Positions 22,072-64,000 of a stretch of DNA of 64,000 nt are shown one piece after another. The notes beneath the pieces are model-generated. The model ran no database searches and was not told the DNA's origin. It saw only the letters and a list, made by a program, of their open reading frames with translations. A program made the translations under genes and the position numbers. Position 1 is the first letter of the stretch; every line of letters begins with the position of its first letter. The stretch comes from Sedimentisphaerales bacterium (GTDB lineage Bacteria > Planctomycetota > Phycisphaerae > Sedimentisphaerales > Anaerobacaceae). Where the stretch lies: contig OY970194.1 in assembly GCA_963708075.1 (NCBI GenBank), positions 6,048,001 through 6,112,000 of the forward strand, in the 5' to 3' direction.

Positions 22072-23631
22072 TCAATACCGTCGGGTACTGGTCTTCGTAT
22101 TCTGGGTGGCGTTGACGAAGAAGTAGCGCAGGGCGTCGATGGGATGATCGTAGATGCCGTCTTTGAAGGGCAGCTCGCCGGTGGCCGCCCCGGTGGCATC
22201 CGGGTAATGGTAGCATTGCAGCGCCTCGATCAAGCGGGGGCAGCGGGGAGAGATGACCAGTGTGCTCTTGCCTTCGCCGCAGCGGATGGCCCGGCGGATC
22301 AGCTCGATACCCTCAAGGATGCTGCTTCGGCGGTAACGCGTGGCGATCCCGAGGGTGCGCAGCTCGCGCACGGCACTCGTGCCGGTGACATCATTGGAGC
22401 CGGCGCCGGCGGGGTCGCAGAACGTGGCCGTGACCTGCTCCTCGGGGCAGGGCGTGCGGGCCTTGATCTGCTCGGTGTGGGCGTCGATTGTCGCCCGGCT
22501 GCGGACGTACTCGTCAATCACTCGCACGACGCCGTCGTGGTCCACCTGAATCCACAGGCACACGAAGGGGTTGATGAAGCCGAAGTCAAGCGTGCGATAG
22601 AGCGGCAGGTTCGGATCGTAATCGACCGGCCGGACGTGAATGGCCGGATCGAATTCGCTGAAGACCACGTTGTCCAGCGAGGGCTTGATGCAGAGCATCT
22701 CGGATTCCCAGCCGGCCCGGCTGCTGCGACGCATCTGCGTGATGCAATCGTCGATCTTCAGGTAGCCGCAGGCTGATCTCGCCCGGCCCTGGCAATCGCC
22801 CGACAGGGGACACTGCGAGCAGTTGCGGCCGATGCATTTCTCGATGGTCTCCCACAGGCACCACTTGAATACAGGCACGCCGCTGCTGGTGGCCGCCGAG
22901 ACTTCTCTCTGCATGATCCCGTACGGCCGGTGCATTGTGCTGATCAGCTCCATGGCTGCCGTGATGCGGTCCGTGCTCTGCGTGGTGAACTTGGCCGCGG
23001 CGAAAACATTGTCGTCGAACAGCTCGACCTCATCGCACCTCAGCTTCTGCACATGCTGGCCGCGCACGCTCGTCGCCGACTGCGTCAGAACCTCGACCCC
23101 CGAGCCATTGCCGAAGCGGCATTTGCCTTTGCGCACCGGCCCGGCCAGAGACTCCTCGAATCCGCTGCGGAGAAACCTCGTTAGATATTCATACATTCGT
23201 CCCGATTGCTCGCCGGAGCCGCCGAGGATGCGAATCTGGCAATCCGGCTTGAAGACCGCGTCCAGCAGCGTTGCCACCGCCGCCAGTTCCGTCTTGCCCC
23301 CGGCACGATTCGCCCAGACAATGGAATCGCCGGATTGATGATTGTTGATGGATGATGGATGATTGGAGGCGGAGGGCGGACAGTCTGAATCATCCTTCAT
23401 CAATAGTCCATCATCCATCGAAAAGCTGTGCCAGAGGTAATCCATCGGGCTGCTGTGTCCCGGGCAGATGCGCACGTCCGGCACATCGACGCCGAGAAAC
23501 ACCTTCACATAGTTCCTGAGGTCCTCCCGCGTCCCCGGCCGCATCCGCCGAAGCGCCGCGATCACGTCCGGCCTGTTTGCCACGTCACGATCAAGAGCTT
23601 GTTCCACCTGCAATGATGTCGTTTCTTTCAT
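22072..23631 (-). CDS. Phage-type terminase large subunit (isolated from the capsid cluster)
   Basis: Walker A WANRAGGKT, Walker B LRCDEVE, coupling motif ISTM, RNase-H-like nuclease TLDFG..P, DPAG, DHPIDALRY; GGAGG RBS. Confidence 0.9.
   Translation of the reverse strand: MKETTSLQVEQALDRDVANRPDVIAALRRMRPGTREDLRNYVKVFLGVDVPDVRICPGHSSPMDYLWHSFSMDDGLLMKDDSDCPPSASNHPSSINNHQSGDSIVWANRAGGKTELAAVATLLDAVFKPDCQIRILGGSGEQSGRMYEYLTRFLRSGFEESLAGPVRKGKCRFGNGSGVEVLTQSATSVRGQHVQKLRCDEVELFDDNVFAAAKFTTQSTDRITAAMELISTMHRPYGIMQREVSAATSSGVPVFKWCLWETIEKCIGRNCSQCPLSGDCQGRARSACGYLKIDDCITQMRRSSRAGWESEMLCIKPSLDNVVFSEFDPAIHVRPVDYDPNLPLYRTLDFGFINPFVCLWIQVDHDGVVRVIDEYVRSRATIDAHTEQIKARTPCPEEQVTATFCDPAGAGSNDVTGTSAVRELRTLGIATRYRRSSILEGIELIRRAIRCGEGKSTLVISPRCPRLIEALQCYHYPDATGAATGELPFKDGIYDHPIDALRYFFVNATQNTKTSTRRY
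23333..23419. repeat. Heptamer tandem-repeat palindrome inserted in-frame in the terminase gene
   Basis: GATTGAT GATTGTT GATGGAT GATGGAT GATTGG...ATCCTTC ATCAATA GTCCATC ATCCATC. Confidence 0.8.
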
Positions 23632-23726
23632 AGAGATGTCCTCCAAATCTGGTATCATGGTTCTTGGTCATTGTGATTGTCGAAAGACAGGGAATCAGGA
23701 AGGGCACACGCGTGACCGCTGACTAC

Positions 23727-23975
23727 ATGGATTTTCTCTCGTTGATGGTCCAAGTGTGGGGCGTGATCGCGGTGGTGGCGTTCACCTTCTTGTGCCGGCG
23801 CAAGAGATGGGCTCCTGCACTCGGGATCATCATCGGCTTCTTCGTTGATATTCTGGCACTGGGCGTCCTTACGGGTGGAGGCCCGGAGATGTGCTTTGGG
23901 TTTGTTCTATTTCCTCTTTGTGGCTGGCTCATTTCGCGAGCGACACTAGCAATCGCTGGCCCTCGCCGACAATAG
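23727..23975 (+). CDS. Small membrane protein
   Basis: Three hydrophobic segments; start uncertain. Confidence 0.5.
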   Translation: MDFLSLMVQVWGVIAVVAFTFLCRRKRWAPALGIIIGFFVDILALGVLTGGGPEMCFGFVLFPLCGWLISRATLAIAGPRRQ

Positions 23976-23994
23976 GGTATAACCACCTGCGTGC

Positions 23995-27386: not shown

Positions 27387-27440
27387 AGGCAACCCCTGTG
27401 GTTGCCTCTTCGTCAGGGCAGGCACGGGGCTTGCCCCTAC
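27387..27440. repeat. GTAG-type REP doublet overlapping the rpiB stop
   Basis: Minus strand GTAGGGGCAAGCCCCGTGCCTGCCCT...AGGCAACCACAGGGGTTGCCT. Confidence 0.65.
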
Positions 27441-27904
27441 TTCTTCGGCGGGAAGGGCTGCATCGAGCAGTTGTCGAGCTCGGCGATCTTCTGGACGCGC
27501 CGGGCGTGGCGGCCTCCGTCGAAGGGCGTGGCGAGCCAGATATCGATCATTTCGAGGGCCAGGTCGAGAGAGACCGCGCGGGCTCCGATGGATATGGCGT
27601 TGGCATCGTTGTGGGCCCGGCTGAGCCTGGCCCCTTCTTTGGTCCAGCACACGGCACAGCGGATGCCGCGGACCTTGTTGGCCACGATCGTCTCCCCGTT
27701 GCCGCTGCCGCCCATCACGATTGCCCGGTCACACTCGCCCTTGGCGACGGCCAGGGCCGCCGGATAGATGAAATCCGGGTAATCGCACGCCTCGGCCGAG
27801 TAGGTCCCAAAGTCCGTGACCTCGTGGCCCTTCTTGGCGAGATACTGCTTGATCTTTTCCTTATACTCATACCCTGCGTGGTCTGTACCCAACGCGATCT
27901 TCAT
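27437..27904 (-). CDS. rpiB: Ribose-5-phosphate isomerase B
   Basis: DHAG, DYPD, GGSGNGE, ANKVRGIR, HNDAN, GGRH.RR. Confidence 0.97.
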   Translation of the reverse strand: MKIALGTDHAGYEYKEKIKQYLAKKGHEVTDFGTYSAEACDYPDFIYPAALAVAKGECDRAIVMGGSGNGETIVANKVRGIRCAVCWTKEGARLSRAHNDANAISIGARAVSLDLALEMIDIWLATPFDGGRHARRVQKIAELDNCSMQPFPPKK

Positions 27905-47982: not shown

Positions 47983-47986
47983 TCTT

Positions 47987-48727: not shown

Positions 48728-48737
48728 GGCGCACCTC

Positions 48738-48814
48738 ATTGATGATTGATAATGGATGATGGATGATTGGTCTTCCGCCGCCGAATCATCAATAATCAAT
48801 CATCCATAATCAAT
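48738..48814. repeat. Heptamer tandem-repeat palindrome (GATGGAT/GATTGAT subtype, same as in the terminase)
   Basis: GATTGAT AATGGAT GATGGAT GATTGG...ATCAATA ATCAATC ATCCATA ATCAAT. Confidence 0.8.
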
Positions 48815-49451: not shown

Positions 49452-49880
49452 TATGTATTCCCTCGCTTGATTGATGCTGCGTATACGCGTGCTCTGCGGA
49501 GAGTCGCTTTCACTCGATAAAGAGTAATCCCGCGATTCTGGCTGATGTGCGCTGCGGAAAGACCGCGGACGAAGAAGTCTTTGATCAGAGCCAACTCGCG
49601 ACCGGTGAAATCATCCCGGTTGCCCAGACAAATCTCATAGGTGTCATCCGCGAGTCGTCGTGCGATTCTGTGAATCCTGCGCCCGACATTCGATGGGCTC
49701 AGCCCCATCAGTCGCCCGATCTGACGAAGACTATTGCCCCGCTCCAGATACATCTCTATCAGGACGCGGTCTCTGCCTGCGAGCAGATGGGCCCGCATCC
49801 GAAGAATCTCGATGACACCACGGTTCTCCACCGTCTCGGTTGACGCAACGGCTGTCTCATAACCGTCCGCAGGTTCTCAT
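49451..49880 (-). CDS. Transcription regulator with two tandem sigma70-region-4-like HTHs; probable start at 49880 after correcting a +1 frameshift
   Basis: RDRVLIEMYL..G.SLRQIGRLMGLS.SNV.RRI and RELALI...F..GLSAAHIS...GIT.YRVK..L.RAR. ATG 49880 has a GGGAG RBS and joins the ORF if one A of GAGAACC is removed; otherwise the ORF starts at GTG 49831. Confidence 0.7.
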
Positions 49881-50324: not shown

Positions 50325-50558
50325 ATTCCCTCCCTCTCATCCCCCCCCGACTCTGCGGCTTTGCCACCCTGTCTCACTTTCGATCGATTTTCGCACGATT
50401 CGCGCCGGTTTAGAAGTAAAAACGGCCGATCCTTCATATTTTTTCTACTCCTTTGCCCACAAGGACTTGGGCGCCCCTCCGCTACTTCGGCCACCGGCTT
50501 TCTTCGACCAATTAGCGCACTTTCGTCCCATTGTGGAGGCAGACATAAATGCCTCGAG

Positions 50559-50659
50559 AATTACGATTTACGATTTAGGCCGGTGCCGAGACGGGCGTGC
50601 CGACCGGGATCCCTGGATCGCGAGTTCCTAAATCATAAATCGCAAATGGTAAATCGTAA
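50559..50659. repeat. Heptamer tandem-repeat palindrome before the portal gene
   Basis: AATTACG ATTTACG ATTTAGG...CCTAAAT CATAAAT CGCAAAT GGTAAAT CGTAAG. Confidence 0.8.
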
Positions 50660-50674
50660 GTGGAGCACAGCGAC

Positions 50675-52228: not shown

Positions 52229-52288
52229 TTTACGAACTCAGTGCTGGCGCGAGCTAAATTGTAAATCATAAATCGCAATTCATAAATT
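52226..52288. repeat. Heptamer repeat element at the portal/scaffold junction
   Basis: GATTTACG...TGTAAAT CATAAAT CGCAATT CATAAAT abutting the GGAGAGG RBS. Confidence 0.7.
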
Positions 52289-52299
52289 GGAGAGGTGCT

Positions 52300-52830
52300 A
52301 TGGGTTCAAGTCGGACAGAAGAGAATCTGCTGGAAACAACGGAGGAGCAGGAGCTGGATGGCAATGATGCCGCGAAATTGGTCTCGGTGACCGAGTCGAT
52401 TCGTTACCGAAAGAGGGCGCAGAGCGCCGAGAAGAAGTCGGAGAGCCTGGCGGAGCAACTGACTGAGGCAAACCAGAAGATCGGCCGCCTGGAACAGGAC
52501 CTGACCGACCTTCAGACCGAGCAGAAACTGATACGCAAGCTTGCAGCGGCCGGCGCCGCGGACCTGGAGGCGGCCGTACTTGTGGCGAAGACAAGGATGG
52601 AGGGCAAGCCGGAAGCCGACATTGATGCGTGCATCGAGCAGTTGAGGAGGGAGAAGGCGTACCTGTTCGGTGGATCAATGGAGACATCACCACTCCGCAA
52701 AACGGCGGGCGCAAAGGATCGAGCCAGGCAGCCGCAGATGGCCCTGGAACAGGCTGCCAAGAAGGCAGCAAGGACCGGCAGCCGCGCGGACCTTCAGCAC
52801 TATCTGAAGTTGCGCAGGAACCTGTTGTGA
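52300..52830 (+). CDS. Capsid scaffolding protein
   Basis: Acidic N-terminus, coiled coil (ESIRYRKRAQ..), I..L..EK.YLF motif; lies between portal and capsid. Confidence 0.8.
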   Translation: MGSSRTEENLLETTEEQELDGNDAAKLVSVTESIRYRKRAQSAEKKSESLAEQLTEANQKIGRLEQDLTDLQTEQKLIRKLAAAGAADLEAAVLVAKTRMEGKPEADIDACIEQLRREKAYLFGGSMETSPLRKTAGAKDRARQPQMALEQAAKKAARTGSRADLQHYLKLRRNLL

Positions 52831-52899
52831 CGCCGGATCAGGACTTGAACAAATCGCATGTGTGACAAAGTAACTGAACCATTGCAAGGAGAAGAGAAT

Positions 52900-54054
52900 A
52901 TGCCATTTACGGGAAAAGCGACATACTCAGCGGGAACGACTCTGCCGGAATTGGCAGAGGATGTGTCGGATATGATCGCGATCATCTCGCCTGATGAGAC
53001 GCCTCTGTTGAACGCGCTGGGCGATCCTCTGCGCAAGGCGACCAGCACGCATCACGAGTGGTTGGAGGATGAGCTGCTCCCCAACAAAGATGCGATCAAC
53101 GATTCGACGTGGTCGAATCCTGCGTCAGACACGGACTTCGTTGTGGACCACGGCAGCCGGTTCCGTGTGGGCGATCAAATCCAGACCGAGGGCAGTGGAG
53201 AGCTGATGCTCGTGACGGCGGTCAGCACCAACACACTGACGGTCGTTCGCGGTTATGCGGGCACCACGCCGGAGAATTTGGCGGACAACCAGATCATCAA
53301 CATCCTCGGCAACGCGGCCCTGGAAGGCGCCGACAAGCCGAACGCACGGTTCACCAACCGGGTGCGGTGCGGCAACTACACGCAGATCTTCACGGCCACC
53401 GTCGAGGTTAGCGGCACCGACATGGCGGCCAGTCAACTGGGCCTCGCGGATGAACTGGATCTCCAGAAGCAGGAACGATTGCGTGAATTGATCCGTGACC
53501 TGGAGGGTACCATCATCAATGGCGGTCTGCCGGCAAGCGATCCACAGGGCAGCGGCACGGTGCGCAGGACGATGAAGGGCATCATCCGGCACCTTTCGAC
53601 GAACGCATTCAGCACCGGCGACAGCGGTCTTCCCGCCGGCAACGATCTGGATGAGGCCAAGGTCAACTATGTGCTGCGGAAGATCTGGGAGAATAGTAGC
53701 GGCAATGTGGACCTGATCGTCGTCGGAGGCTTTCAGAAGCGAAAGATCAACGCCTTCTGCTCGGACAGTCGAAGCTATGGGGCGACCGACACGACGTTCA
53801 CGGACATGGTGAGCATCTACGAGTCGGATTTTGGCGTCTGCCGGATTGTCACGACTCGGTGGCTGCCGCAGGATGTGGCACTGTTCCTGGATTCTTCGAG
53901 GATCAGCGTTCTGCCCATGGCGGGACGGAGTTTCTACTTCAAGCCGCTGGCCAGCGCCGGCGATTACGAGTGCGGCGAGCTCATCGGCGAGTACACGCTC
54001 GAACTCAAGAATGAGGCTGCTCACGGCTTGATCCGCAACCTGACCACAAGCTGA
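52900..54054 (+). CDS. Major capsid protein (HK97 fold, DUF5309/SU10-like) with an inserted beta domain
   Basis: EDVSD.I..ISP.ETP, HEWLEDEL, NYTQIF...VEVSGT, RDLE..II.G, R.MKGI, Y.SDFG, IGEYTLE.KNE.AHG; insertion F.VGD.I...GELMLVTAV..NTLTVVRGYAGTT. Confidence 0.9.
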   Translation: MPFTGKATYSAGTTLPELAEDVSDMIAIISPDETPLLNALGDPLRKATSTHHEWLEDELLPNKDAINDSTWSNPASDTDFVVDHGSRFRVGDQIQTEGSGELMLVTAVSTNTLTVVRGYAGTTPENLADNQIINILGNAALEGADKPNARFTNRVRCGNYTQIFTATVEVSGTDMAASQLGLADELDLQKQERLRELIRDLEGTIINGGLPASDPQGSGTVRRTMKGIIRHLSTNAFSTGDSGLPAGNDLDEAKVNYVLRKIWENSSGNVDLIVVGGFQKRKINAFCSDSRSYGATDTTFTDMVSIYESDFGVCRIVTTRWLPQDVALFLDSSRISVLPMAGRSFYFKPLASAGDYECGELIGEYTLELKNEAAHGLIRNLTTS

Positions 54055-54057: not shown

Positions 54058-54121
54058 CGATTGCGGATTGATGATTTCGGATTGCGGATTGGATCGCAGG
54101 GAGTTTTCCAATCCGCAATCC
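54058..54121. repeat. Heptamer palindrome (GATTGCG subtype) after the capsid gene
   Basis: GATTGCG GATTGAT GATTTCG GATTGCG GATTGG...CCAATCCGCAATCC. Confidence 0.8.
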
Positions 54122-54142
54122 TGAGCGTGGAGATTGAAGACA

Positions 54143-54799
54143 ATGGTCAAGTTCTCAAGCGATGTGGACATTCTGAAGTATGAGCCGATTCTGTTCAGCG
54201 AACTGCATTTGCCGTGGCAGGTACTGGCGAGCGGGACCGGCGCGACCCTGGCTGGCACAACTCTGACGGTTTCAGATGCGAACTTCGAGAGTGCCGGTGT
54301 TTCCCTGGATGGTGTCGCCTATTTGCTCTCGACAGATGGATTGCTTGACGGCGCATATGAGATCGTGTCCGTGGATTCGGCGACACAACTGACTGTCTCA
54401 GTCCTCAGGTCAGACACTGCGAATACTCCAGTTGCCCCACCAGCCGCTGACGACGTCACCTATCGCATCAGCACGTTCGAGCCGCAGGCGGGTGAAGCGG
54501 CCTTCCAACTGACCGAGTACTTTGGCATCCGGCCGGGTGACGCGACGAGCACGATCACTGTTGATGACATCGTGGACACCGAGGGACTGCGAAGAGCCTC
54601 CGCCTTCCTGGTCATCGCCAGCGTCTACGCCATGTGGACCAGCCGGACCGATTGTGAGACGTTTTGGCGAAAGAGCTTGCATTACAGGCAGTTCTTCGAA
54701 AACGCCCGACAGCGATGTCATCTGAGTGTGGACCTTGGGTCCGACGGTGTGGCGGATATCACTCGCGTGGGCGGTGCGATCAGACTGGTGCGGGACTGA
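54143..54799 (+). CDS. Putative head-tail adaptor/virion protein
   Basis: Follows the capsid; FS.D.DI.KYEP N-terminus; helical C-terminus LRRAS...V...FWRKS.HYRQ.FE....D...DG..D......RL.R. Confidence 0.55.
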   Translation: MVKFSSDVDILKYEPILFSELHLPWQVLASGTGATLAGTTLTVSDANFESAGVSLDGVAYLLSTDGLLDGAYEIVSVDSATQLTVSVLRSDTANTPVAPPAADDVTYRISTFEPQAGEAAFQLTEYFGIRPGDATSTITVDDIVDTEGLRRASAFLVIASVYAMWTSRTDCETFWRKSLHYRQFFENARQRCHLSVDLGSDGVADITRVGGAIRLVRD

Positions 54800-54817: not shown

Positions 54818-55190
54818 ATGAATGTCACATTAGATGGCAGTGCGTTGTTCGATGATCAGGGGCTGCAGATGGAAGTCGGCAGCTACAGCAGGGCCTACGT
54901 CGAACGCGCTATCCGCGGTTCTCGACGGTATGCTGAGCATCGATCTGGGAGAACGAACACGAGAAATTCTTCAGCGAGGCACGCTCCGCGCTCCCAGTCG
55001 GGCGGCAATGCAGGCCAGGACCGATTCGATCTCAGCTTTCATCGATGGCGATACGCACACGCTGAGAACCGCTGACAGACAAGAGTATCACAATATCCGC
55101 ATGGACAGCTTCAAGCAAATCGATGAGAGTACCAGCGGGCCGGGAATCGCCATCGAGTACGAGATCGTGTACACACAACTGGGAGTGTAG
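54818..55190 (+). CDS. Virion-associated protein, ~123 aa after correcting a +1 frameshift at 54917-54923
   Basis: MNVTLDG...ERAIRG continues as LDGMLSIDLGERTREI..GTL in the next frame; weak resemblance to distal-tail proteins. Confidence 0.6.
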
Positions 55191-55195
55191 CGGCC

Positions 55196-55975
55196 ATGTC
55201 GTTTCTTCGTGATGGGATTGAGAATGTTCGGGTCTTCGCTCTGCCGGATGGTGTCCGGGCAGACGGCCGGAGTGTCGCTGTGTATGGGGCCGCATTGGTG
55301 GCCTGGCGTTCATCGCATGTGGGCATGTTCCACCATGTGTACCTGAACGGCCGCTTCGCGGGTGCCACACTCGACACGGAGCAACGGCGACTTGTGGTGC
55401 AGGTACCCGGCTCATTCCAATCGGCGATACGAGTGACGGTGATCGCGGTGTCGCCAGCGGATGCTCACGTGGATTGCGCCGCTGACATCGAGCAGGCCAC
55501 GGTGTGCAGCGGACGGGTCAGGCTGACGTTGCTGCGAAGTCAAACCCTGCCTCTCGGCGCAACAGCCAATATCTACCATGACAGCGGCACGGGACAGATC
55601 GACTATGCAGAGCCGGTGAATCTAGCGCCGATTCCGGTTTGGCCCTGCGTGCAAGACAAGGCGGGTTTCGGGATGGCGCAGTTCGCAACGGGTGATTTTG
55701 GCTACGATTCTGCGGCATCATTCGGCTTTGGGAGAGGCGCTCTGGGACATGGCCAGTTCGGCTTGGATGCCGACTCGTTCCAGTGGACAGGGCCAGCGCT
55801 GCCGCTTGGCAAATACCGGTTTGGCGTGAGGATCACCGATACGATCGGCAACGTGAGCCTCGCCAGTGAGACGGCGCAGGTCACCATCGCGCCTGCCGTT
55901 AAGCCTGCGGACGGTCTTAATGTCGCGGCATTTGACGAACAAACGAACGAACTCACACTGACGGTAACAGGCTAA
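55196..55975 (+). CDS. Virion-associated beta-rich (FN3-like) protein
   Basis: HVYLNG, NIY.D.GTG.IDY..P, G.FG repeats, GKYRFGV..D..GN.S. Confidence 0.6.
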   Translation: MSFLRDGIENVRVFALPDGVRADGRSVAVYGAALVAWRSSHVGMFHHVYLNGRFAGATLDTEQRRLVVQVPGSFQSAIRVTVIAVSPADAHVDCAADIEQATVCSGRVRLTLLRSQTLPLGATANIYHDSGTGQIDYAEPVNLAPIPVWPCVQDKAGFGMAQFATGDFGYDSAASFGFGRGALGHGQFGLDADSFQWTGPALPLGKYRFGVRITDTIGNVSLASETAQVTIAPAVKPADGLNVAAFDEQTNELTLTVTG

Positions 55976-56007
55976 GTCATGCCTATGACAGATGCCAGGA
56001 GAACACT

Positions 56008-56796
56008 ATGAGCGAAGTCTATCCTTCCGACAATGAATTATTGAATCTGCAGTCGGACGCGGAAACAGGCGTCGAGTATATCGCGACCGGCACGGCCCCG
56101 TACTACCTTCACTTTCGAAAGCTCCTTTACCGGCTGCTGCTGGGCATGCGCCGGGCGAACGACCTGAGGGTATATGACGAGGGCGGGCTGGACATCGGCG
56201 TCAAGGGGGGCAAGTTTTGGCTGGGCACGGACCTAGTCGAGTACGCCGGGTCCTCCGCCAACACGCTGGCCGATAACAAGCCGAACGTCTACATCTACCT
56301 TGATGCCGGGGGCGATCTCGTCACGAACGAATACGGTGGCTTCCCAAGTATGACGACCACACCCCACGTGCGTCTGGCGGTCGTGACCACTGCCGGCAAC
56401 GACATCAGCTCGATCATGGATTGCCGCGGTGGACACAACATTACAGTCCCGTACGCCGCTGGCGGCATCCACAAGTCCATCGAGGCGCACACCAGCAATG
56501 ACGTACTTGCCCCGGCCGAGTCGGGCAGTGTGCACACCAACCTCGGGGCCACCGGCGTTGTGATGCTTACGCTGCCGGCTTCGGCGCCACAGGGGACTGT
56601 CTTCACCCTCGCCGTGCAGGCGGCGTTCGAGTTACGGGTGGATCCTGGCACAGCTGCGATCCGCGACGACAGCGGCCAGACCCCTGACAAGTACAAGTCG
56701 GCCAGCGCCGTCGGCGCGTCTCTCACGCTCGTCGCCGACGCCAACGGTAACTGGGCAACGGTCGCTAAGAACGGAACGTGGACGCAGGAGAACTGA
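56008..56796 (+). CDS. Hypothetical virion protein
   Basis: AGGAG RBS; co-oriented in the virion operon; C-terminal TLPASA..G..F....GTWT beta-rich domain of the kind seen in phage decoration/fibre proteins. Confidence 0.6.
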   Translation: MSEVYPSDNELLNLQSDAETGVEYIATGTAPYYLHFRKLLYRLLLGMRRANDLRVYDEGGLDIGVKGGKFWLGTDLVEYAGSSANTLADNKPNVYIYLDAGGDLVTNEYGGFPSMTTTPHVRLAVVTTAGNDISSIMDCRGGHNITVPYAAGGIHKSIEAHTSNDVLAPAESGSVHTNLGATGVVMLTLPASAPQGTVFTLAVQAAFELRVDPGTAAIRDDSGQTPDKYKSASAVGASLTLVADANGNWATVAKNGTWTQEN

Positions 56797-56798
56797 CG

Positions 56799-56873
56799 GA
56801 TTTATGAATTATGATTTCCGATTTAGGGGTGGCGAGAACCCGAATTACAGTTCGCAATTCATAAATCGTAAAT
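56799..56873. repeat. Heptamer palindrome
   Basis: ATTTATG AATTATG ATTTCCG ATTTAGG...CGCAATT CATAAAT CGTAAAT abutting GGAGAG. Confidence 0.8.
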
Positions 56874-56885
56874 GGAGAGACACCG

Positions 56886-57344
56886 ATGTCGAATGAAATT
56901 CACGTGGATTACGGCTCCAGCAACGTCCTGTACGCCGTGATTCGCAACGATGCCGGCCAAGTCTGGCGTGTGGCCGGGCAGGCCTTTGAGAACTGGGGCG
57001 CGGATGGGCACACCGCCGATGATTATGACATCGCTTTGACGGACACCAGCGGCAGCCACTACGTCGGCAGCGTCGATGGGAACATCCCCAGTGGCTCCTA
57101 CTCCATCCAAGTGTTCTGCCGGCTCGGCGCTGCTCCGGCCGACACCGACCCGCTGGTGAGCAGTCGGCAGATCCTCTGGACCGGCACCGGGGAACTGACG
57201 GCCGCCAAGTTCCTCGTGAACCGGGCCGTCCAGGACAAAGTCACCGGTGACGTCGATTACTACGACGATGACAGCCAGACGATCCTGCTCACCCATACCA
57301 TGGGCGAAACCCAAGCGTACTTCACAAGGACACCAAACTCATGA
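56886..57344 (+). CDS. Hypothetical virion protein
   Basis: GGAGAG RBS; beta-rich; YYDDD..T.L C-terminus. Confidence 0.6.
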   Translation: MSNEIHVDYGSSNVLYAVIRNDAGQVWRVAGQAFENWGADGHTADDYDIALTDTSGSHYVGSVDGNIPSGSYSIQVFCRLGAAPADTDPLVSSRQILWTGTGELTAAKFLVNRAVQDKVTGDVDYYDDDSQTILLTHTMGETQAYFTRTPNS

Positions 57345-57424
57345 TCTGCGACTTACGAATTGCGAATTACGATTTCGCTCTCACCACGCCCAAGTCGCAA
57401 ATCGAGAATCGCAAATTGTAAATC
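57343..57424. repeat. Heptamer palindrome
   Basis: ATCTGCG ACTTACG AATTGCG AATTACG...CGCAAAT CGAGAAT CGCAAAT TGTAAAT. Confidence 0.8.
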
Positions 57425-57437
57425 CAATGGAGGACCT

Positions 57438-57837
57438 ATGTCTGGCTTTTCAGATTACTGGGAAAACCGGATTCTGAACCATCTGTTCTGCAAAGAGGCG
57501 TACGCCCCGCCAGCGTTGCTCTACGTGGCCCTGTCCACTGCTGATCCGGGCGACGACGGGACGGGTGCGGCAGAGCCCGCGGGCGGTTCTTACGCCCGCG
57601 TCGAGAACCTGCAATGCAAGCTGGGCCGGGGCCTCCGGCGGCGCGGTCTGCAACGCCGACGCCATCGAGTTTCCCCAGGCTTCCGGCGACTGGGGCACGA
57701 TCACCCACTTCGCTCTCTATGACGCTGCCACAGGCGGCCACCTGCTCGCCTGCGGGCCCCTGACCTGGCCCAGGACCGTCACCGCCGCCCATGCTATCCG
57801 CTTCGCCCCCGCCCACCTGACCGTGACGCTGGGTTGA
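57438..57837 (+). CDS. Phage tail-associated protein; +1 frameshift at 57603-57609
   Basis: MS.FSDY.EN.ILNH..LYVALST.DP..EP.GGSYARV continues as N..AIEFP.A.GDWGTITHFALYDAATGG.LL in the next frame, a pattern I recognise from phage tail-region proteins. Confidence 0.75.
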
Positions 57838-57845
57838 ACTGAAGA

Positions 57846-57929
57846 TAAAACGTCAAACATCGAAGATCAAAAGTAAGAAAGCATCGCCGAAGGCGATTCC
57901 GCAGCTTTGACTTTTGAGTTTCGATCTTG
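57846..57929. repeat. Heptamer palindrome (TCAAA/TTTGA subtype) with central hairpin
   Basis: CGTCAAA CATCGAA GATCAAA...ATCGCCGAAGGCGAT...TTTGACT TTTGAGT TTCGATC. Confidence 0.65.
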
Positions 57930-57944
57930 GAAACGGAGTTTCTG

Positions 57945-58358
57945 ATGGCCAGCTATCCGCAATACGACTACGATCCTTCGAGCACGAACCTGTATCGCAC
58001 GAACCTCTACTCCGGGGCCGACCCGGATGTCGGAAGTACACAGCAGTTCTGTGCCGACATCGACCTGACCCGGCTGCTCTTCGCCGTCTGCGAGCTGAAG
58101 TTCGACGCCAGCGGAGCCACCGACGACCTCAAGGTGAGTCTCTACCGCCGCATCGACGACTCCTGGGATGGCGACGAACTCGAGATCTTCGCCACCACCC
58201 TCGACAGTGACGGCTCCGAGGATCTCTGGTCCTTCGTCCTCGGGCCCGACTTTGGCCCGGGCCACTACCGATTCGGACTTAAAAGCACCGGCGCCACCGA
58301 TACTTTCGACGTCGACCTCGACACCCGCTTCGCACGATTCGAAATCGCCACGAGTTGA
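57945..58358 (+). CDS. Hypothetical acidic beta-sandwich virion protein
   Basis: GGAG RBS; co-oriented; ends 4 bp before the next gene. Confidence 0.6.
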   Translation: MASYPQYDYDPSSTNLYRTNLYSGADPDVGSTQQFCADIDLTRLLFAVCELKFDASGATDDLKVSLYRRIDDSWDGDELEIFATTLDSDGSEDLWSFVLGPDFGPGHYRFGLKSTGATDTFDVDLDTRFARFEIATS

Positions 58359-58362
58359 GACT

Positions 58363-59907
58363 ATGGCTACTAAGATCAAACCGTTGTTGGGCATTCTCGC
58401 GCGAGGTGGCCATCCCCTCGTTCGGGGTCTGGCGGGTGCATGGTTGTTCAACGAGGGGCGGGGGAACACGGCCTGGGACCTCAGCGGCAGCGGGCATCCG
58501 GGGACGCTGACGGGCATGGACCCGGCGAGCGACTGGGTCGCCGGGCCCCACGGGTACGCTCTGGACTTCGACGGGACCGATGACCGGGTGATTGTCGGCC
58601 CGGACGCAGGGATCAACCTCGGCACCGCCAACGCTTGCGTCATCCGATGCCGTATGAATTTGTTGAGTGCCTCGCGTATGCTCTTTGGGCACAAGGCGTG
58701 GAATAATGGCGGGTACTTCTTCACGCTTGCATCCGGGCTCCTCTATTATTGCGCGAATGGGTCCTACAAGGGCGTCTCGCATGGGATCATCGCAGGCGAC
58801 GAAGTATGGCTGGGGGTGTCACGGCAGGGGACGTTCGTGGCATTCTACAAGAACGGCGTGCCCCTCGGAGCGGTCCAAACGCTCGCCGCCAACAATGGCC
58901 TCTCTGTGAGTTCGATCGGAGCGTACCGCGATAGCGCGGCGGAGCTGGCGAACATGCGGTGTGACTACGTATACTGCTGGAACCGGGCGCTGTCGGCGGG
59001 GGAGATGGCGTGGCTATACCAGGACCCGTTCTGCTTCTTCCGGCGACCGAGCACGATCCCTCTCCTGGATTTCTCCGAAGGCACGATCCACGACGTCTCA
59101 GGCGCGGCCAGCGCGGCTTCTTCGGCAAGCGGGACCGCCACGGTGGTCCCGGGCGCTTGGCAGCCCACCGGCACACCCTGGCCGGAAGCCACGCTGGGCA
59201 TCGAGGCCTCCTGGCGGAAAGAGGCGATGCTCCATGGGATGACGGATGTCGCGGTGAAGCTCGGGATCGTTCTCACGCAGGGCTGGTTCTGGACGCGACG
59301 GTCAGGATGCTCGTTGCTATACGAACTGCAGGACGGGAAGGTTCATAAGCCCACCTTCCTCCTGCGTCGCGTGGCGCCGGTAGACGCCAGGCACATCGCC
59401 TTGTCTGCGTACCTGCCCCATGGGCCCGGCTCGAGTTGCTGCTATCTCCTCCGGCGGTTCAACAGTTGCGGGCACCAGGACCGAACGGTGGGAGCGGCGG
59501 TCCTCGTTCGCATGGCCCCAAACGGCCAACTGGCCCCACCTGCACCGAATCCCGTTTTCGGCCTGCAGGCCCGACAGACTGCCGGCGCCGTAGAGACGCA
59601 ACACCTTGTCTCTGTAGAGTGGTTCTACTGGCCTCTCGATCAGGCGGTGGTTCCGCGCGTGTTCAACGTGTACTGGGACGGCGGAACCGGCTGTCTTGAC
59701 CTTGTGAACCCTGTCGCGGTGGTGCCTTACGCGGGACGCAGGTTCTACCGGTGCCAAAGTGGGCCGGTGGAAGATGGCACGTATGTCTTCGCTGTGCAGG
59801 CTGAGAGTGTCACTGCGGTAGAGAGCCCGCCACGGAAATTCCAAATTCGGATTTCGACATTCGAAACTGGAGAGGAGCCGAGGATCCTCGACGTGGAAGC
59901 CATCTGA
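58363..59907 (+). CDS. LamG/concanavalin-like + FN3-like protein (putative receptor-binding or decoration protein)
   Basis: HPLVRGLAGAWLFNEG.G..AWDLSG, ALDFDG.DD, WNRALS..E...LY.DPF; C-terminal FNVYWD.GTG..D...P, GTYVFAVQA, similar to the 55196 gene. Confidence 0.75.
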   Translation: MATKIKPLLGILARGGHPLVRGLAGAWLFNEGRGNTAWDLSGSGHPGTLTGMDPASDWVAGPHGYALDFDGTDDRVIVGPDAGINLGTANACVIRCRMNLLSASRMLFGHKAWNNGGYFFTLASGLLYYCANGSYKGVSHGIIAGDEVWLGVSRQGTFVAFYKNGVPLGAVQTLAANNGLSVSSIGAYRDSAAELANMRCDYVYCWNRALSAGEMAWLYQDPFCFFRRPSTIPLLDFSEGTIHDVSGAASAASSASGTATVVPGAWQPTGTPWPEATLGIEASWRKEAMLHGMTDVAVKLGIVLTQGWFWTRRSGCSLLYELQDGKVHKPTFLLRRVAPVDARHIALSAYLPHGPGSSCCYLLRRFNSCGHQDRTVGAAVLVRMAPNGQLAPPAPNPVFGLQARQTAGAVETQHLVSVEWFYWPLDQAVVPRVFNVYWDGGTGCLDLVNPVAVVPYAGRRFYRCQSGPVEDGTYVFAVQAESVTAVESPPRKFQIRISTFETGEEPRILDVEAI

Positions 59908-59980
59908 TTTACGATTTATGATTTACGATTTTTGACTCACGCAAATCACGAATCGGAGATCGTAACTCGCAAATCGTACA
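59906..59980. repeat. Heptamer palindrome
   Basis: ATTTACG ATTTATG ATTTACG ATTTTTG...CGCAAAT CACGAAT CGGAGAT CGTAACT CGCAAAT CGTACAT. Confidence 0.8.
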
Positions 59981-59997
59981 TCAAAAGGGGAACGGGA

Positions 59998-61842
59998 ATG
60001 GGCAACACAGTCGACTTGTTTCAGCCGGAGCGTGTGAGCCTGGCTTTGCCGGCCGGTACGGTGGTCGTCTTCATCGACGGCGCGCTATGCGATGGTCTCG
60101 AGCCGGTGGAGATCGTCCGCGGAGGCTGGCCGGAATTCGGGCGTGCGAAACTGTTGTACAACCCGGCTACACGCCACGCCTCAGCGACACCAGGTGTTGT
60201 GTCCTTGTCAGAGGAGATTGAGGGCCACCTCGGCATGGGCAAGCACGTGAGCCTGCGGCAGCTTTTCAATGCCGCACCGCTGCAAACGGCCATGGATGAC
60301 CTTGTGCTCTTCGAGGGACAGATCGAAAGCATCGAAACCGCCATTGGCCCCGAAGGAGAGACTGTCGAGCTGACGGCCAGGGACTTCAGCGCTGTCCTCG
60401 AACACGTGACTGTGTATGGGCAGCATGTTGATGCATGCACTGGTGGCACCATCTTCCTGTCCGGCCTGGAGACGGCCTTCAACCCCGGCGGAAAGGGCAA
60501 TGCTGGGATGGAGCCGGCTGTAGCCAACGGGCAAACCTGCACGGTCTTCAGCGCAGAGGCCGCGGGAGCCAGAGCATGGCGATTGGCGGAGGTTATTGAG
60601 TACCTTCTGAAGGCGCACCTTCCTGCGGGGCGGCTGCACTGGCCTGGTATTGAGCAACTGCTTGCCCTGACAGAGGCTCGCGCAGCGCACGACTTGGACG
60701 TCACGGGCCTGAGCCTTCTCGAAGCCCTGCATCACTGCTGCGACTGGGCAGGTCTTCAGTTCCGGTTCGTACCGCGCTCGATCCAGACCGGGCCCCGCCA
60801 GGCAGTCGTCTTCTATCGGAACGGCCGGGGCCGCGTGATCGAACTGAATTGCCAGCCGGTGGGACAACCGTTGAGTCTGTCGCGGACCAGCATCGGTGCA
60901 CTGCATAGTCGGCGTGACGTCTATCCTCTCACGCATCGGTATATCGGCCAGGGCGATTTCAAGGTGTACGAGGCGACGTTCGAGCTCGTGAAGGCCTGGG
61001 ATCCCGCTCTGGAGGGCGTGAACTACTACACCTTCTGCCCATCAGCGAATCCGGAATTCCACAAGGTCAGGGATGTGTATCGCAGGTGGTGCCTTAATGA
61101 AGCGGGCGACTACTCCCGCGAACCCTATAGCCGTGGCCTACCCTGCGATCTCACGGGCATCTTTGAAGGCGGCAGCTATGTCCGTCGTCGCCGGAGATTC
61201 TGGCCGACCCTGAGTACGGACAGCCAAGGCAGGCCGCTGGGCTACTCACTGGAGGTTTCCTACGATGATGGTCTGAACTGGTGGCAGTATTTCCACGCCT
61301 TCAACAACCTGCTGGACGAATGTGGAATCTGGCTTTCCAACGACCAACTTGACGTGGATATATGGGTAGCCGTTCTGAAAGGGGTGTTGAGATTCCGGGT
61401 CACCGCCGCTGTCGTGAGCGACGAGCGGTTGACCTGCACGGTGGCGAATGGTCCGGTCGGTTCGACGGCCCCTGTAATCGACCACGTGCTCACGTTGCCC
61501 CGCCGGTTCCAGTATCGCAAGGTCTCGCCACACAGCGTGCTCGCCGGCACGGAGGGATTCGGCAAGCCCAATGAGGTTGATGACACAGCCGCCCTGTATG
61601 AGTTCGTCCGCCGGCACGCGTCGGCATCAGAGGCGATCATTGAAATAACTGACCTGCAAACACCCGCCCTCGCCTTGCACTTCGAGCCGGGCGATCGTGT
61701 GACCTCCGGCCCCGACAGTCGGGATCTGTTGAGCTGTCGGCGCGACAACCGGAGCCTCGTTTGGATAGATCATGTCCGCATGGATTTCAAGAGCCAATGC
61801 ACGCACCTGAGGCTCATCCGACAACGACCGTGGAGCGAATAG
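59998..61842 (+). CDS. Putative baseplate hub/Tal-like tail-tip protein
   Basis: LFEGQIE.I......ETVELTARD, L.VTGLSLLEAL...C..AG..F and C-terminal PGDRV motifs resemble gpD/Tal-like hubs. Confidence 0.55.
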   Translation: MGNTVDLFQPERVSLALPAGTVVVFIDGALCDGLEPVEIVRGGWPEFGRAKLLYNPATRHASATPGVVSLSEEIEGHLGMGKHVSLRQLFNAAPLQTAMDDLVLFEGQIESIETAIGPEGETVELTARDFSAVLEHVTVYGQHVDACTGGTIFLSGLETAFNPGGKGNAGMEPAVANGQTCTVFSAEAAGARAWRLAEVIEYLLKAHLPAGRLHWPGIEQLLALTEARAAHDLDVTGLSLLEALHHCCDWAGLQFRFVPRSIQTGPRQAVVFYRNGRGRVIELNCQPVGQPLSLSRTSIGALHSRRDVYPLTHRYIGQGDFKVYEATFELVKAWDPALEGVNYYTFCPSANPEFHKVRDVYRRWCLNEAGDYSREPYSRGLPCDLTGIFEGGSYVRRRRRFWPTLSTDSQGRPLGYSLEVSYDDGLNWWQYFHAFNNLLDECGIWLSNDQLDVDIWVAVLKGVLRFRVTAAVVSDERLTCTVANGPVGSTAPVIDHVLTLPRRFQYRKVSPHSVLAGTEGFGKPNEVDDTAALYEFVRRHASASEAIIEITDLQTPALALHFEPGDRVTSGPDSRDLLSCRRDNRSLVWIDHVRMDFKSQCTHLRLIRQRPWSE

Positions 61843-61910
61843 AGATTGTCCCGGCATGATGGGTGGGAGATCTGCCTGTTGGCCGACATCAGCCAGTAAT
61901 AAGGAGTCCC

Positions 61911-62243
61911 ATGGACAGCAGGAATGTCACAGATCAGCAGCAGCTTCTGGCCGAGCTGGCGCGGACCGGCTCAGAAAATCGGCAGGAGAGTGCCGTCGTC
62001 ATTTCGCCGGGAGCCAGAGTGGTCGGGTGGGCGGTCAAGGTAAAGAGCCACGTGGCGTACAACAGATACAAGGTGTGCGCCGTCGTCATAACCGTCCCCG
62101 GCTTGACGCCCATCGAGATCGGAGAACAAATGGAGGCGGTCAACCTCGCAGAGCCTTTCCTGAGTCAGGGCACTGTCGCCGCGGGCAAGTACGGCATCAT
62201 GTGTCGTGTGGGCGAGGTCAACGTCTTCTATGCCGTGCCGTAG
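61911..62243 (+). CDS. Hypothetical virion protein (possible spike/tip)
   Basis: AAGGAG RBS; beta-rich; directly after the hub-like gene. Confidence 0.55.
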   Translation: MDSRNVTDQQQLLAELARTGSENRQESAVVISPGARVVGWAVKVKSHVAYNRYKVCAVVITVPGLTPIEIGEQMEAVNLAEPFLSQGTVAAGKYGIMCRVGEVNVFYAVP

Positions 62244-62272
62244 CGCGCCGGCGGACTGAACAGGAGGCGATA

Positions 62273-62542
62273 GTGACTAAAGAAACAGCGACAGGCTGGC
62301 GATTTGACCGCCGGATCAATCTCTCGGTGCTGCTGCAACTCATGGTGCTCGTATCCCTGATCCTCGGAAGCTGGGTGAATCTGCAACGACAGCTCGACTT
62401 GCTCCAGCACGACGTCACCATACTGCTGCAAAGTCAGAAGGAGTTCCAGCAGAAGCTCGAATCACTATCTGAGCGAAGTCTGTCCTGTGAGTACCGCCTG
62501 CAAGCCCTGGAAAAGGAGACGGTAGACCACAGTCGCCTGTGA
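62273..62542 (+). CDS. Small TM + coiled-coil protein (holin-like)
   Basis: AGGAGG RBS, GTG start; GWRFDRRINLSVLLQLMVLVSLILGSW then a heptad coiled coil. Confidence 0.6.
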   Translation: MTKETATGWRFDRRINLSVLLQLMVLVSLILGSWVNLQRQLDLLQHDVTILLQSQKEFQQKLESLSERSLSCEYRLQALEKETVDHSRL

Positions 62543-62617
62543 AGTACCGTCAGCACAGGATGGATCGCGGATCCGTGAAGAGCATCCACTGATCGGGCGC
62601 GGCATGCGGCCTGAGTG

Positions 62618-63707
62618 TCACCAGATGAGACAGTTGCATTTGCGAGGATCACCCCGGCTTTTCAGATGATCCCAGACGTAGGGCGTTTCACGGCAGAGAC
62701 TGATAGATATGTGCTTGTTATGAGCGAGGATTGCATCGGTGAGGAGTCGATAGAACCCTATGCGTTGCTCAGGAGGATAGCGATACTTGCCGTCCGACGC
62801 TCTTTCCGTGAGAACCCATGCTTTGCAGTCGTGCGCCGCGATCACCGTAAGCCTGTCGGGCGAGTCTGAAGTGTCCGGGCAACAGCCGCAGCATGCCAAT
62901 CGTGATGTTCTCCGGTTCAAGGGCGGCAAGCGTTTCTCGAATCAATTCGGTGTAGTCGCGTTGCCAGTCAGAATAGAGGATGCCCGGATCGATACGCAGT
63001 CGGATGCGGTAGCCGTGTGCCTGGCACCGTCGCGCGGCGTGGATACGCTGCTCCAGACTCGCGGTACCCACTTCAAACGAGTCGATCATCGCCCGCGTAT
63101 TGAGGCTCCACGAGACCATGGTTTGGCTATTGGGCGTGAGACTCAGAAGGCCATCGACATTGGCGCTCTTAGTCAGCAGCATCAGATATCCGTTGGAGAG
63201 CCGGGAGAACAGCGGAACCAGTCGGGACGCCAACAAGCTGACATGGTCCAGGGCCAGACTGTCCAGCATCTCTCCCATGTTGAAGCTGATCGCATTCTGT
63301 GCACAAGCGGTCAGATCGCGAATCTCGTCGCACATTTTGCCGTAGTTGATGTTCAATTTGATGAAAGGAAGGTGATCCCGGTAGACATAAGCGAGATAGC
63401 AATAGGTACAATAATAAGGGCAGCCGTTCGAGATGGGCACGAGCTTGACATACGATGCACACCGCACGCTGCTGCCGAGACAGCCGTCAAAGTGGCGCAG
63501 GAACGAGGAGGCCTCGCCAATCATCAGGACTCTCTTGCCGGCGACTATGGCGGGCCTGGAGGGATGCTGCGGCAGAACCACGTCCCGCTGGCGGTCCACG
63601 ATCTGGACGTGTGCTTCCGGGAACATCCCGATGATGCGGGCAGCTTCCTTATGTCGCTGCAGCTTGCGCAACAAGTAGATGGTACTCGGTCTGAATGCCT
63701 GGGCCAT
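62618..63707 (-). CDS. Spore photoproduct lyase (SplB)-like radical SAM protein; +1 frameshift at 62810-62816
   Basis: GCPYYCTYCYL, GEMLDSL, LLTKS.NV, SWSLN, E.GTASL.QRI.AA; C-terminus DGKYRY..R..LC.E..CNC in the next frame. Confidence 0.85.
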
Positions 63708-63794
63708 ATCCACGGCAGTCTCCGTTTGTGAAATCCCTGAACGACCATTGTACGCGTGAATACGAAAAAACGCATGACAATCCAGGAGGCAATT

Positions 63795-64000
63795 ATGAAG
63801 ACACTCTTTGCAGGACGCACAGGCAGATTGGCCACCATGATCCTCATCAAGGTTCTGATGGTATCCTTCCCCACAGGCCTGCTCTGCGGCTGCGACAGCC
63901 TGCGGCTGGCGCCAAGCGAGCAGCAGAAACAGAACGCCTGGCTGCACAACCGCACGGCGACGGTTGCCGCGGAGACGGCGCGGGCGGAGCCGACCTCACA
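63795..64000 (+). CDS. Lipoprotein, 5' part only (runs off the window)
   Basis: AGGAGG RBS; MKTLFAGRTGRLATMILIKVLMVSFPTGLLCGC-DSLRLAPSEQQKQNAWLHNRT..; open to the window end. Confidence 0.65.
   Translation, partial: MKTLFAGRTGRLATMILIKVLMVSFPTGLLCGCDSLRLAPSEQQKQNAWLHNRTATVAAETARAEPTS

Follow-up and report, generated by a model that had tools for sequence, protein, structure and literature searches.

To our knowledge, the gene transfer agents (GTAs) described so far represent a handful of independent systems, of which that of the Alphaproteobacteria alone is both old and widespread. RcGTA (Rhodogtaviriformidae) is encoded at several loci and is deeply inherited, with the genes of the large terminase subunit (TerL) and the portal together in its main cluster. 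The loci of VSH-1/BhGTA in Brachyspira and of BaGTA in Bartonella are contiguous or amplified, and neither system extends much beyond a single genus. PBSX is a chromosomal non-propagating phage which packages host DNA into a killing particle and is encoded by one contiguous myovirus-like locus in a narrow Bacillus group. We found neither a GTA nor conserved phage particle genes described for Planctomycetota in the literature, and the GTAs of a Namib preprint are alphaproteobacterial. In the present study we analyse a stretch of 64,000 nucleotides, referred to here as the window, which covers positions 6,048,001-6,112,000 of the 7.5-Mb single-contig genome of a Sedimentisphaerales bacterium (class Phycisphaerae; genome G000), and in which an initial annotation had proposed a GTA-like system of dispersed phage head and packaging genes.

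Our analysis supports this interpretation, the gene-transfer part of which is an inference. The system is very likely domesticated and selectively maintained, and on balance we regard it as a phage-derived particle system that is owned and kept by the host lineage, that is, a viriform of the GTA kind. It would quite likely make DNA-filled particles, and it may deliver the packaged DNA to other cells as a true GTA, a step that we hold to be slightly short of an even chance. What is new here is that the packaging half of the system, ABC-GNAT-ParB-TerS-TerL, is co-inherited and has the gene order of SSU5-like phages, together with a third (tail) locus in one complete genome and two spanin-like genes that close the head operon.

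The system resembles RcGTA in its phage-derived set of head, packaging and tail genes, its deep vertical inheritance under purifying selection, its distribution over several loci and its lack of integrase and replication genes; its function here is a putative one. It differs from RcGTA in having an SU10-type capsid (PF17236), with no prohead protease or tape-measure domain found, a short-looking tail, a ParB/ABC/GNAT module by the terminase, a break between TerL and portal, and a host in Planctomycetota. It is not a member of the RcGTA family and is of independent origin, being set apart by domain content without direct protein comparison. VSH-1/BhGTA and BaGTA are likewise independent domestications of tailed phages into host-owned particles; compared by description only, they differ from the Phycisphaerae system, which is class-wide and dispersed. 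PBSX shares with it the nature of a chromosomal phage-derived particle, but the system described here has a short-looking tail, which is its least conserved component.

Results

Gene content of the system

The phage-derived genes span 42 kb of the window and lie among housekeeping genes, as the initial annotation had described for loci spread over more than 40 kb. They comprise a TerL gene, a TerS-like gene, an operon of four genes on the minus strand and a divergent head and tail operon which extends beyond the window. The genes are given below in window coordinates with the matches that identify them, and the counts refer to 80 related loci, many of which are cut by contig ends.

22072-23658 (-): large terminase subunit TerL (Pfam Terminase_6C, E 7e-6; four PHROG TerL families, best 6.9e-15)
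41383-41808 (-): TerS-like protein (phrog_2538 TerS, E 2.7e-7)
47125-47802 (-): ParB/sulfiredoxin-fold protein (Pfam ParB_N, 1e-6; 14 PHROG families)
47987-48799 (-): GNAT-like (acyltransferase-like) protein (phrog_886; ESM Atlas)
48810-49451 (-): soluble ATP-binding cassette (ABC)-type ATPase (Pfam ABC_tran; phrog_293, 4.9e-28)
49451-49831 (-): sigma-70 region-4 helix-turn-helix (HTH) protein (Pfam Sigma70_r4, 7.6e-9; TIGR02937, 5.7e-11, just under its cut-off)
50660-52228 (+): portal (Pfam SPP1_portal, 3.8e-16; phrog_64, 2.2e-22)
52300-52830 (+): scaffolding protein (Pfam Phage_scaffold, 9e-5, below cut-off; position between portal and capsid; 79 of 80 loci)
52858-54054 (+): major capsid protein of SU10 type (Pfam SU10_MCP, 1.2e-87; phrog_1328, 2.4e-78)
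54134-54799 (+): head-to-tail adaptor-like protein (AlphaFold model and VIA-align)
54834-55190 (+): small conserved neck/tail protein of no known family (71 of 80 loci)
55196-55975 (+): conserved tail protein of no known family (68 of 80 loci; profile matches in families f9 and f11)
56008-56796 (+): tail-fibre-like protein (16-homologue profile matches PDB 8kec, 'Long tail fiber', E 6e-6)
56886-57344 (+): conserved small tail protein of no known family (57 of 80 loci)
57360-57722 (+): fibre-I-like protein of the podophage GP4 gp80 family (Pfam Gp80, 1.3e-16; phrog_240)
58168-59907 (+): large, fast-evolving 579-aa tail protein (58 of 80 loci; median identity 34.5%)
59932-61842 (+): tail hub/tip protein (gp27, Mu gp44, VgrG and Tal-like fold)
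62270-62542 (+): i-spanin-like small membrane-anchored coiled-coil protein (start approximate; C-terminal part of open reading frame (ORF) 61856-62542)
63774-64418, window part 63774-64000 (+): lipoprotein, o-/u-spanin-like (lipobox and C-terminal transmembrane segment)

The boundaries proposed initially needed small corrections: the four-gene operon, placed at 47125-49880, runs from 47125 to 49831 and does encode the HTH, ABC ATPase, GNAT-like and ParB-fold proteins, and the head operon of portal, scaffold, capsid, adaptor and tip, placed from 50675, starts at 50660. The gene order from portal to lipoprotein is retained in most of the 80 loci, with per-gene counts from 80 (capsid) to 37.

Distribution, descent and selection

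The system was compared with a set of close relatives formed by 41 genomes from 16 genera and 8 families of the order, and with an even sample of 401 genomes across the phylum, which includes 9 genomes of the order and 19 others of the class; comparison genomes carry G-codes, loci L-codes and family labels f-codes. Single-copy conservation, congruence with taxonomy, a ratio of nonsynonymous to synonymous substitution (dN/dS) well below 1 and variable positions of TerL and TerS, which the initial annotation had put forward as tests of its proposal, are all borne out by the comparison. TerL, portal and capsid are each matched once in G000 and, over the full length, once in most relatives, being present in 39, 37 and 34, respectively, of the 41 genomes. 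All 9 genomes of the order in the phylum sample have the capsid and TerL, each of which also occurs in 16 of the 19 others of the class, and neither is found in the large families f15 (0 of 24) and f16 (0 of 14). At least 575 stretches of the species-genome collection encode a capsid relative. Full-length frames occur across the 8 families of the order and the class families f9, f10 and f11, and for the capsid also f13. Capsid identity to G000 declines step by step with kinship, being 78-86% in the genus, 57-83% in the other families of the order, 56-65% in the class and about 50% in f63, and the capsid is as conserved as topoisomerase I (TopA), whose identity is 77-82% in the genus and 62-69% in the other families. 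The Pearson correlation with TopA identity is 0.78 for the capsid (n=27), 0.84 for TerL (n=33) and 0.95 for the portal (n=26), values which are descriptive only and overstate the support, because the genomes are related and not independent.

The capsid and TerL trees both follow the family labels. The capsid tree (39 rows, quick search) has 20 label changes for 19 families, where the minimum is 18, the mean of shuffled labels is 31.9 and 0 of 200 shuffles are as low, and its support is 100 for the order, 95 for the class and 97 for the f63/f40/f96 group. The TerL tree (21 rows) reaches the minimum for its 11 families, with 10 changes, and each family with at least two rows forms one clade. The same taxonomy-shaped tree for the unlinked TerL and capsid genes is what co-inheritance with the host predicts.

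The median dN/dS (Nei-Gojobori, pairs with dS of 0.05-1.5 from the 80 related loci) lies between 0.095 and 0.32 over 15 genes, with no neutral decay, and these values are rough, the median dS of about 1.1-1.3 in the pairs used being close to saturation. The median is 0.095 for the capsid, 0.12 for the portal, the ABC ATPase and the fibre-like protein, 0.15 for the adaptor, 0.17 for the scaffold and the hub, 0.27 for the HTH protein and 0.32 for the 579-aa protein. The GC content at third codon positions is 0.74 in the genes of the system versus 0.79 in neighbouring host genes, which, like the host-wide repeat in the intergenic gaps of the system, speaks against a current phage. An old prophage remnant that decays neutrally, and is conserved through recent common ancestry alone, would account for lineages without the head locus or with fragments of it (G040, G013 and G021). 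This explanation appears exceedingly improbable in the face of full-length frames in 8 families of the order and 3-4 of the class, capsid identities of 57-86% against 62-82% for TopA, dN/dS values of 0.1-0.3 and invariant catalytic residues in TerL.

Packaging genes

The TerL gene, described initially as intact-looking at 22072-23631, is intact in its ATPase and nuclease motifs and covers 22072-23658. In an alignment of 17 sequences from the order, the class and one outgroup, the Walker A residues R118, G120, K122 and T123, the Walker B residues D209 and E210, the coupling motif S240/T241, four cysteines and the nuclease residues D358, E383, D415, D504, H505 and D508 are invariant. The protein also carries a conserved N-terminal extension of about 90 residues ahead of Walker A, and the four-cysteine cluster sits between the ATPase and nuclease parts, where G000 and G010 have a low-complexity insert.

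These residues bear on the idea that the capsid was re-used as a protein compartment or other non-DNA structure and that TerL was kept for an unrelated nuclease or ATPase role. Such a re-use would explain why TerL is unlinked from the head genes wherever both can be placed, and why one genome has a capsid without TerL (G408) and another TerL without a capsid (G041). Yet these are the only 2 with one gene alone among the 28 order and class genomes of the phylum sample, both genes being present in 24 and neither in 2 (G282 and G379); portal, scaffold, adaptor, TerS and TerL are retained together, the ATPase and nuclease residues of TerL are invariant, and the capsid and TerL trees have the same shape. 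We therefore consider this re-use very unlikely.

The TerS-like gene proposed at 41383-41808 is borne out by its match to phrog_2538, which is shared by 6 of 9 homologues, and 5 of 9 match a second TerS family, phrog_24579; a search of PDB sequences with the TerS profile gave no match below E 0.1. TerS lies immediately upstream of TerL in G033, G039, G025, G035 and G032, and rpiB intervenes between the two in G037. This host gene is found near TerL across families, in G031, G010 and G000 (window 27437-27904, L020:8619-9056 and L017:14745-15173), embedded in the packaging operon.

An HTH-ABC-GNAT-(ParB)-TerS block accompanies TerL in families of the order, in the class families f9, f10 and f11, and in f63. 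The HTH gene is the first of the packaging operon, divergent from the portal, and its homologue leads the same operon in G031, G037, G010 and family f10. The ABC ATPase, which many NCBIfam ABC models match below their cut-offs, is linked to TerL both at class level and in f63. The nearest ESM Atlas clusters of the GNAT-like protein are Planctomycetota GNAT families, with scores of 0.96, and its PHROG label is 'ABC'; the GNAT and ABC ATPase genes share one open frame in L187, L188 and L189, which looks like a fusion. The ParB-fold gene is located between GNAT and TerS/TerL in class-level relatives. In an alignment of its homologues, G61 and R64 of the GHHR motif are invariant and H62 and H63 nearly so, a motif which we take to link the protein to the nuclease/sulfiredoxin branch and not to partition ParB.

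The SSU5-like phage-plasmids have the same set of genes, in nearly the same order, upstream of their head genes. In Klebsiella phage ST13-OXA48phi12.3 the order is ParB-ParB-ABC-x-ABC/acyltransferase fusion-x-DNA-binding-terminase-portal-x-capsid, and the SSU5-like GNAT homologue, annotated as 'ABC-type ATPase fused to acyltransferase', has about 24% identity over half of the GNAT-like protein. These are autonomous phages with contiguous genomes, in which they differ from the system described here. Since SSU5-like phages have the same gene order, the ABC/GNAT/ParB genes are not a host add-on. PADLOC gave weak single-domain matches for the three genes (mad3, 3.7e-13, ABC fold; MTase_II, 9e-7, ParB_N), and its models assigned them to no defence system. 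Our guess is that the trio takes part in packaging by choosing or cutting the DNA substrate.

Head and tail genes

The capsid protein matches SU10_MCP with 294.6 bits, for a cut-off of 24.1, over profile positions 11-292 of 292. SU10/GP4-like short-tailed phages share with the system this capsid family, the gp80 fibre-I family, the fibre match to 8kec and an adaptor similar to that of 8jov; they differ in that the capsid is at most 31.6% identical to any phage record, and perhaps in that the tip has a gp27/Mu gp44 hub fold. The adaptor is present at every head locus down to class level. Its AlphaFold model (predicted local distance difference test (pLDDT) 93, built on 26 homologues) aligns in VIA-align with Z of 6.3-8.3 to neck and adaptor proteins, including VP1 and DEV, the best being the Mu neck subunit, Moo19 tail chain B and the GP4 portal-tail complex 8jov (Z 7.6-8.3); a profile search of PDB sequences gave 0 matches, and Foldseek against PDB none at E <= 0.001. 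The reading of 54134-54799 as an adaptor has moderate support.

Among the tail genes, the small protein at 54834-55190 has profile matches in families f9, f11 and f10 and in the phage-like relative G084, and the tail-fibre-like protein at 56008-56796 is found at 66 of 80 loci with a median identity of 73%. The 579-aa protein, with no family match in Pfam and PHROG scans and the highest dN/dS of the set, is a candidate receptor-binding part. The 'tip' of the initial annotation is the hub at 59932-61842, identified by fold search: its AlphaFold model (pLDDT 81) has 58 Foldseek matches in PDB at E <= 0.001, down to 1.9e-11, the top ones being baseplate hubs and tail tips. No PDB sequence was matched by the hub profile, and of its 17 members 1 matched a nameless PHROG. 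Family scans recognised no tail tube or tape-measure gene.

The last two genes may form a spanin-like pair spanning the envelope. The first encodes about 85 residues, its homologues having 81-113 with one N-terminal transmembrane segment followed by a coiled-coil-like region, and the gene is kept down to families f7, f4, f6 and f8. The lipoprotein has about 190-214 residues; G000 and most of 7 homologues show a lipobox and, near residues 115-155, a hydrophobic segment. Its gene is the final one of the head locus in G031, G037, G038 and G030. A radical SAM gene of the spore photoproduct lyase family lies antisense between the two (62769-63947, minus strand) and also occurs in 21 of the 80 related loci.

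Dispersal of the loci

TerL adjoins the portal gene in no genome where both can be placed. The distance between them is 28.6 kb in G000, 8-22 kb in the genus, 62-128 kb in the complete or near-complete f10 genomes G106, G179 and G211, and 979 kb, 689 kb and about 323 kb in the complete genomes G031, G037 and G038. The genes of the system span 42 kb in G000 and 0.3-1 Mb in three complete genomes, and with 42 kb to about 1 Mb between them the full set would probably not fit into one particle, so that it would spread only with the host. In L060 and L090, from the same family as G000, the genes run as TerL, pseudouridine synthase, TerS, ParB, GNAT, ABC and HTH, followed by the portal on the opposite strand; relative to these abutting blocks, the arrangement in G000 contains additional insertions, one of about 15 kb and one of about 5 kb.

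The tail module (54834-61842) is part of the head locus in the class families f9 and f11 and in the phage-like G084, which indicates that it is ancestral. It is not at the head locus in f8, f7, f4 and f6, nor in L100 and L110, which are of the same family as G000. In the complete genome G038 the hub is found at a third locus 209 kb away (L193, G038:C1:4180001-4200000), with an adaptor-like gene, unknown genes and four sugar- or methyl-transferase genes, right before mraZ-rsmH. These four, a sialyltransferase-like, a nucleotide-sugar-transferase-like, a methyltransferase and a GT9 gene, sit between the adaptor-like gene and the hub, which hints at glycosylated tail parts.

No genes for autonomous replication, integration or excision were recognised by Pfam domains in the window and 20 kb downstream or by PHROG domains in the window, in which several small ORFs belong to no family. 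The absence of integrase, repressor and replication genes noted initially for the window holds for its predicted proteins in Pfam, and the integrase or replication module whose presence past 64000 had been named as evidence against the proposal is not found by Pfam in the following 20 kb, which encode a peroxiredoxin, BlaR/BlaI-like genes, MsrAB, a histidine kinase and unknowns.

Two groups of more distant relatives were also observed. In f63 and its neighbours (f40, f96 and f47; L173-L177, L188 and L189) the capsid is about 48-52% identical and TerL is diverged; there is an ABC-GNAT-TerL block in which ABC and GNAT form one open frame, and a search with the portal profile detected no portal up to 10 kb away from the capsid gene. 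In family f54 (L183, G182:C172; L184, G084:C1) the capsid is about 30% and TerL 41-43% identical; in G182 the TerL and capsid genes are on one strand, with TerL upstream at a distance of only 3.8 kb, as is usual in phages, and the adaptor, the small tail genes and the hub of G084 follow one another as they do in G000. The f54 relatives may be true prophages of the ancestral type.

The phage-like arrangement of G182, a relative within Planctomycetota, could be taken to favour active temperate phages, or capsid-forming satellites, which integrate repeatedly into Phycisphaerae genomes. In the same direction, IMG/VR lists as viral three contigs with 64-84% capsid identity, the remainder being at 36% or below; these three are probably host contigs called viral. 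Against such an origin, the genes have one match each in G000, Pfam finds no integrase or replication genes in the window and the 20 kb downstream, TerL and portal lie 8 kb to about 1 Mb apart with housekeeping genes between them, the trees follow taxonomy, and none of 50,697 phage records has a capsid more than 31.6% identical, which leaves a gap to all phage records at 32% or less. Recurrent integration is accordingly highly improbable in our judgement.

Genomic surroundings

The host genes between the loci include those below, together with genes for an FAD oxidoreductase, a permease, a sulfatase, a penicillin amidase and a pyridine-nucleotide oxidoreductase, and a UDG-like gene.

27437-27904: rpiB
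38313-39155: rsmI-like
39043-39792: rsmE-like
39899-40546: pseudouridine synthase
40765-41334 (+): efp
45011-46981: treZ-like amylase

Two minus-strand ORFs were rejected as genes: 40516-41343 is an over-long frame opposite efp, and 44442-45008 is over-long with a junk-like translation and no Pfam match.

The initial annotation had also placed host-type repeats between and inside the genes, which is partly confirmed: a heptad repeat, (AAATCRT)n, occupies intergenic gaps. It has 124 sites genome-wide, 7 of them intergenic at 47.8-59.9 kb, and its copies in the window, in both orientations, are as follows.

39800-39886
47837-47991
48788-48818
50558-50658
52261-52291
54059-54081
56799-56870
57357-57379
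59906-59978

The repeat was considered as the mark of a regulon and rejected, the other two clusters of at least three sites accompanying ordinary host genes, a MacB/FtsX permease together with a methyltransferase in one case and a pfkB kinase in the other. It is missing at the loci of 14 of 15 relatives, with one site in L019 away from genes, and is a species-specific, AT-rich host repeat. The housekeeping part of the window contains three copies of a 43-nt palindromic repeat, two of which lie side by side in inverted orientation, and also a distinct inverted repeat rich in GTGGAC (7536-7578, 14420-14505 and 10875-10979); both are similar to repetitive extragenic palindromic elements.

Just past the head operon lie two genes of unrecognised family (genome positions 6112426-6113762), which are found beside TerL in G010, G014, G004 and G016. 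The first of them, a 244-aa gene 426-1160 past the end of the window, was rejected as part of the system because a genome may hold several copies of it (up to 7 matches); most of its matches are in the genus, those in 3 other families being weaker, and its family may be mobile or regulatory. The second lies at 1157-1762. A 488-aa GLUG-motif protein encoded 2.4 kb past the end of the window (2396-3862) is weakly similar to proteins near the loci of G031, G037 and G038.

Discussion

We propose that a Phycisphaerae ancestor captured the late region of a phage, which would have carried, in this order, ParB, ABC, GNAT, TerS, TerL, portal, scaffold, an SU10-type capsid, adaptor, a short tail with fibres and hub, and spanin-like genes. 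Replication and lysogeny functions would have been lost after the capture, and the block would have been split between TerL and portal, with host genes then spreading in. In present-day cells a host signal, perhaps acting through the sigma-70 region-4 HTH protein, may switch the system on in a subpopulation. Procapsids would then be assembled on the portal and the scaffold, and TerS and TerL, with the ParB, ABC and GNAT accessories, would load them with headfuls of mostly chromosomal DNA. The adaptor, fibres and hub would finish a short tail, and the spanin-like pair may aid release.

Several observations weigh against this reading. The head locus was not detected in four genomes which have TerL (G001, G015, G029 and G033), and G040 has just an 84-residue portal remnant with a stop, from which it follows that loss occurs. 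Capsid or portal frames are broken in G013 and G021, both of them low-completeness assemblies. To these points are added the near-saturated dS and the non-independence of the genomes in the TopA correlations, as given above. No endolysin, holin or prohead protease was recognised among the genes of the system, and the spanin calls are based on topology and one weak match, that of the i-spanin-like protein to phrog_7686 'Rz-like spanin' (E 0.03). As to the tail, 4 of 5 complete genomes (G031, G037, G211 and G179) gave no match to the hub and fibre profiles: over the five, single-sequence searches gave 0 of 5 and 1 of 5, and profiles 1 of 5 and 0 of 5. The head locus of G037 stops at a host GH2 glycosidase. 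In G211 no PDB sequence matches the ORFs that follow the adaptor, among them one of 259 aa and one of 677 aa; these may be tail genes that have diverged, so that an absence of the tail is not claimed. Some lineages may nevertheless keep the head and the motor without a recognisable tail, which would be a poor fit to transfer based on injection.

The tail results also bear on a domesticated particle with another role, either PBSX-type killing or competition, or capsids that export or store DNA, for instance as extracellular DNA of the matrix, without delivery. All the conservation evidence fits such a particle equally well, and tail genes undetected by profile in 4 of 5 complete genomes suggest a conserved core of head and motor. 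The fast-evolving 579-aa tail protein, at 34.5% identity and a dN/dS of 0.32, would suit a killing or targeting role; killing particles, however, normally need tails, and the tail is here the least conserved part. The sequence offers nothing that separates another role from that of a GTA, and we judge the former unlikely, at a strength clearly above that of the alternatives discussed in the preceding sections.

A Phycisphaerae strain, ZRK32, is reported to release hexagonal tailless particles without lysis (PMC10945688). In the part of that report on which we draw, they are attributed to a 21.9-kb extrachromosomal 'chronic phage', and capsid, portal and terminase genes are not mentioned (PMC10945688). 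These particles may relate to the system described here.

Returning to the GTA reading, a more far-reaching form of it can be put forward tentatively. The system could be an ancient and independent GTA of Phycisphaerae, and probably also of a second lineage formed by f63 and its neighbours, derived from a phage with an SU10 capsid and an SSU5-like module and of about the age of RcGTA, in which the tail was moved or lost in some families and tailless DNA-filled heads may be released. If this is the case, such heads would represent a mode of DNA export or exchange which has not been described for GTAs.

Virus-prediction pipelines list loci of this kind as viruses, as for the three IMG/VR contigs, and this can inflate the counts of prophages in sediment metagenomes. 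The families in which the tail is at the head locus, at a third locus or undetected constitute natural experiments on which parts of a particle are required. If our interpretation is correct, a second, class-wide system would indicate that the long-term domestication of particles is not an alphaproteobacterial oddity, and it would provide a candidate route of DNA transfer for Planctomycetota, a phylum with few genetic tools and in which gene exchange is little known.

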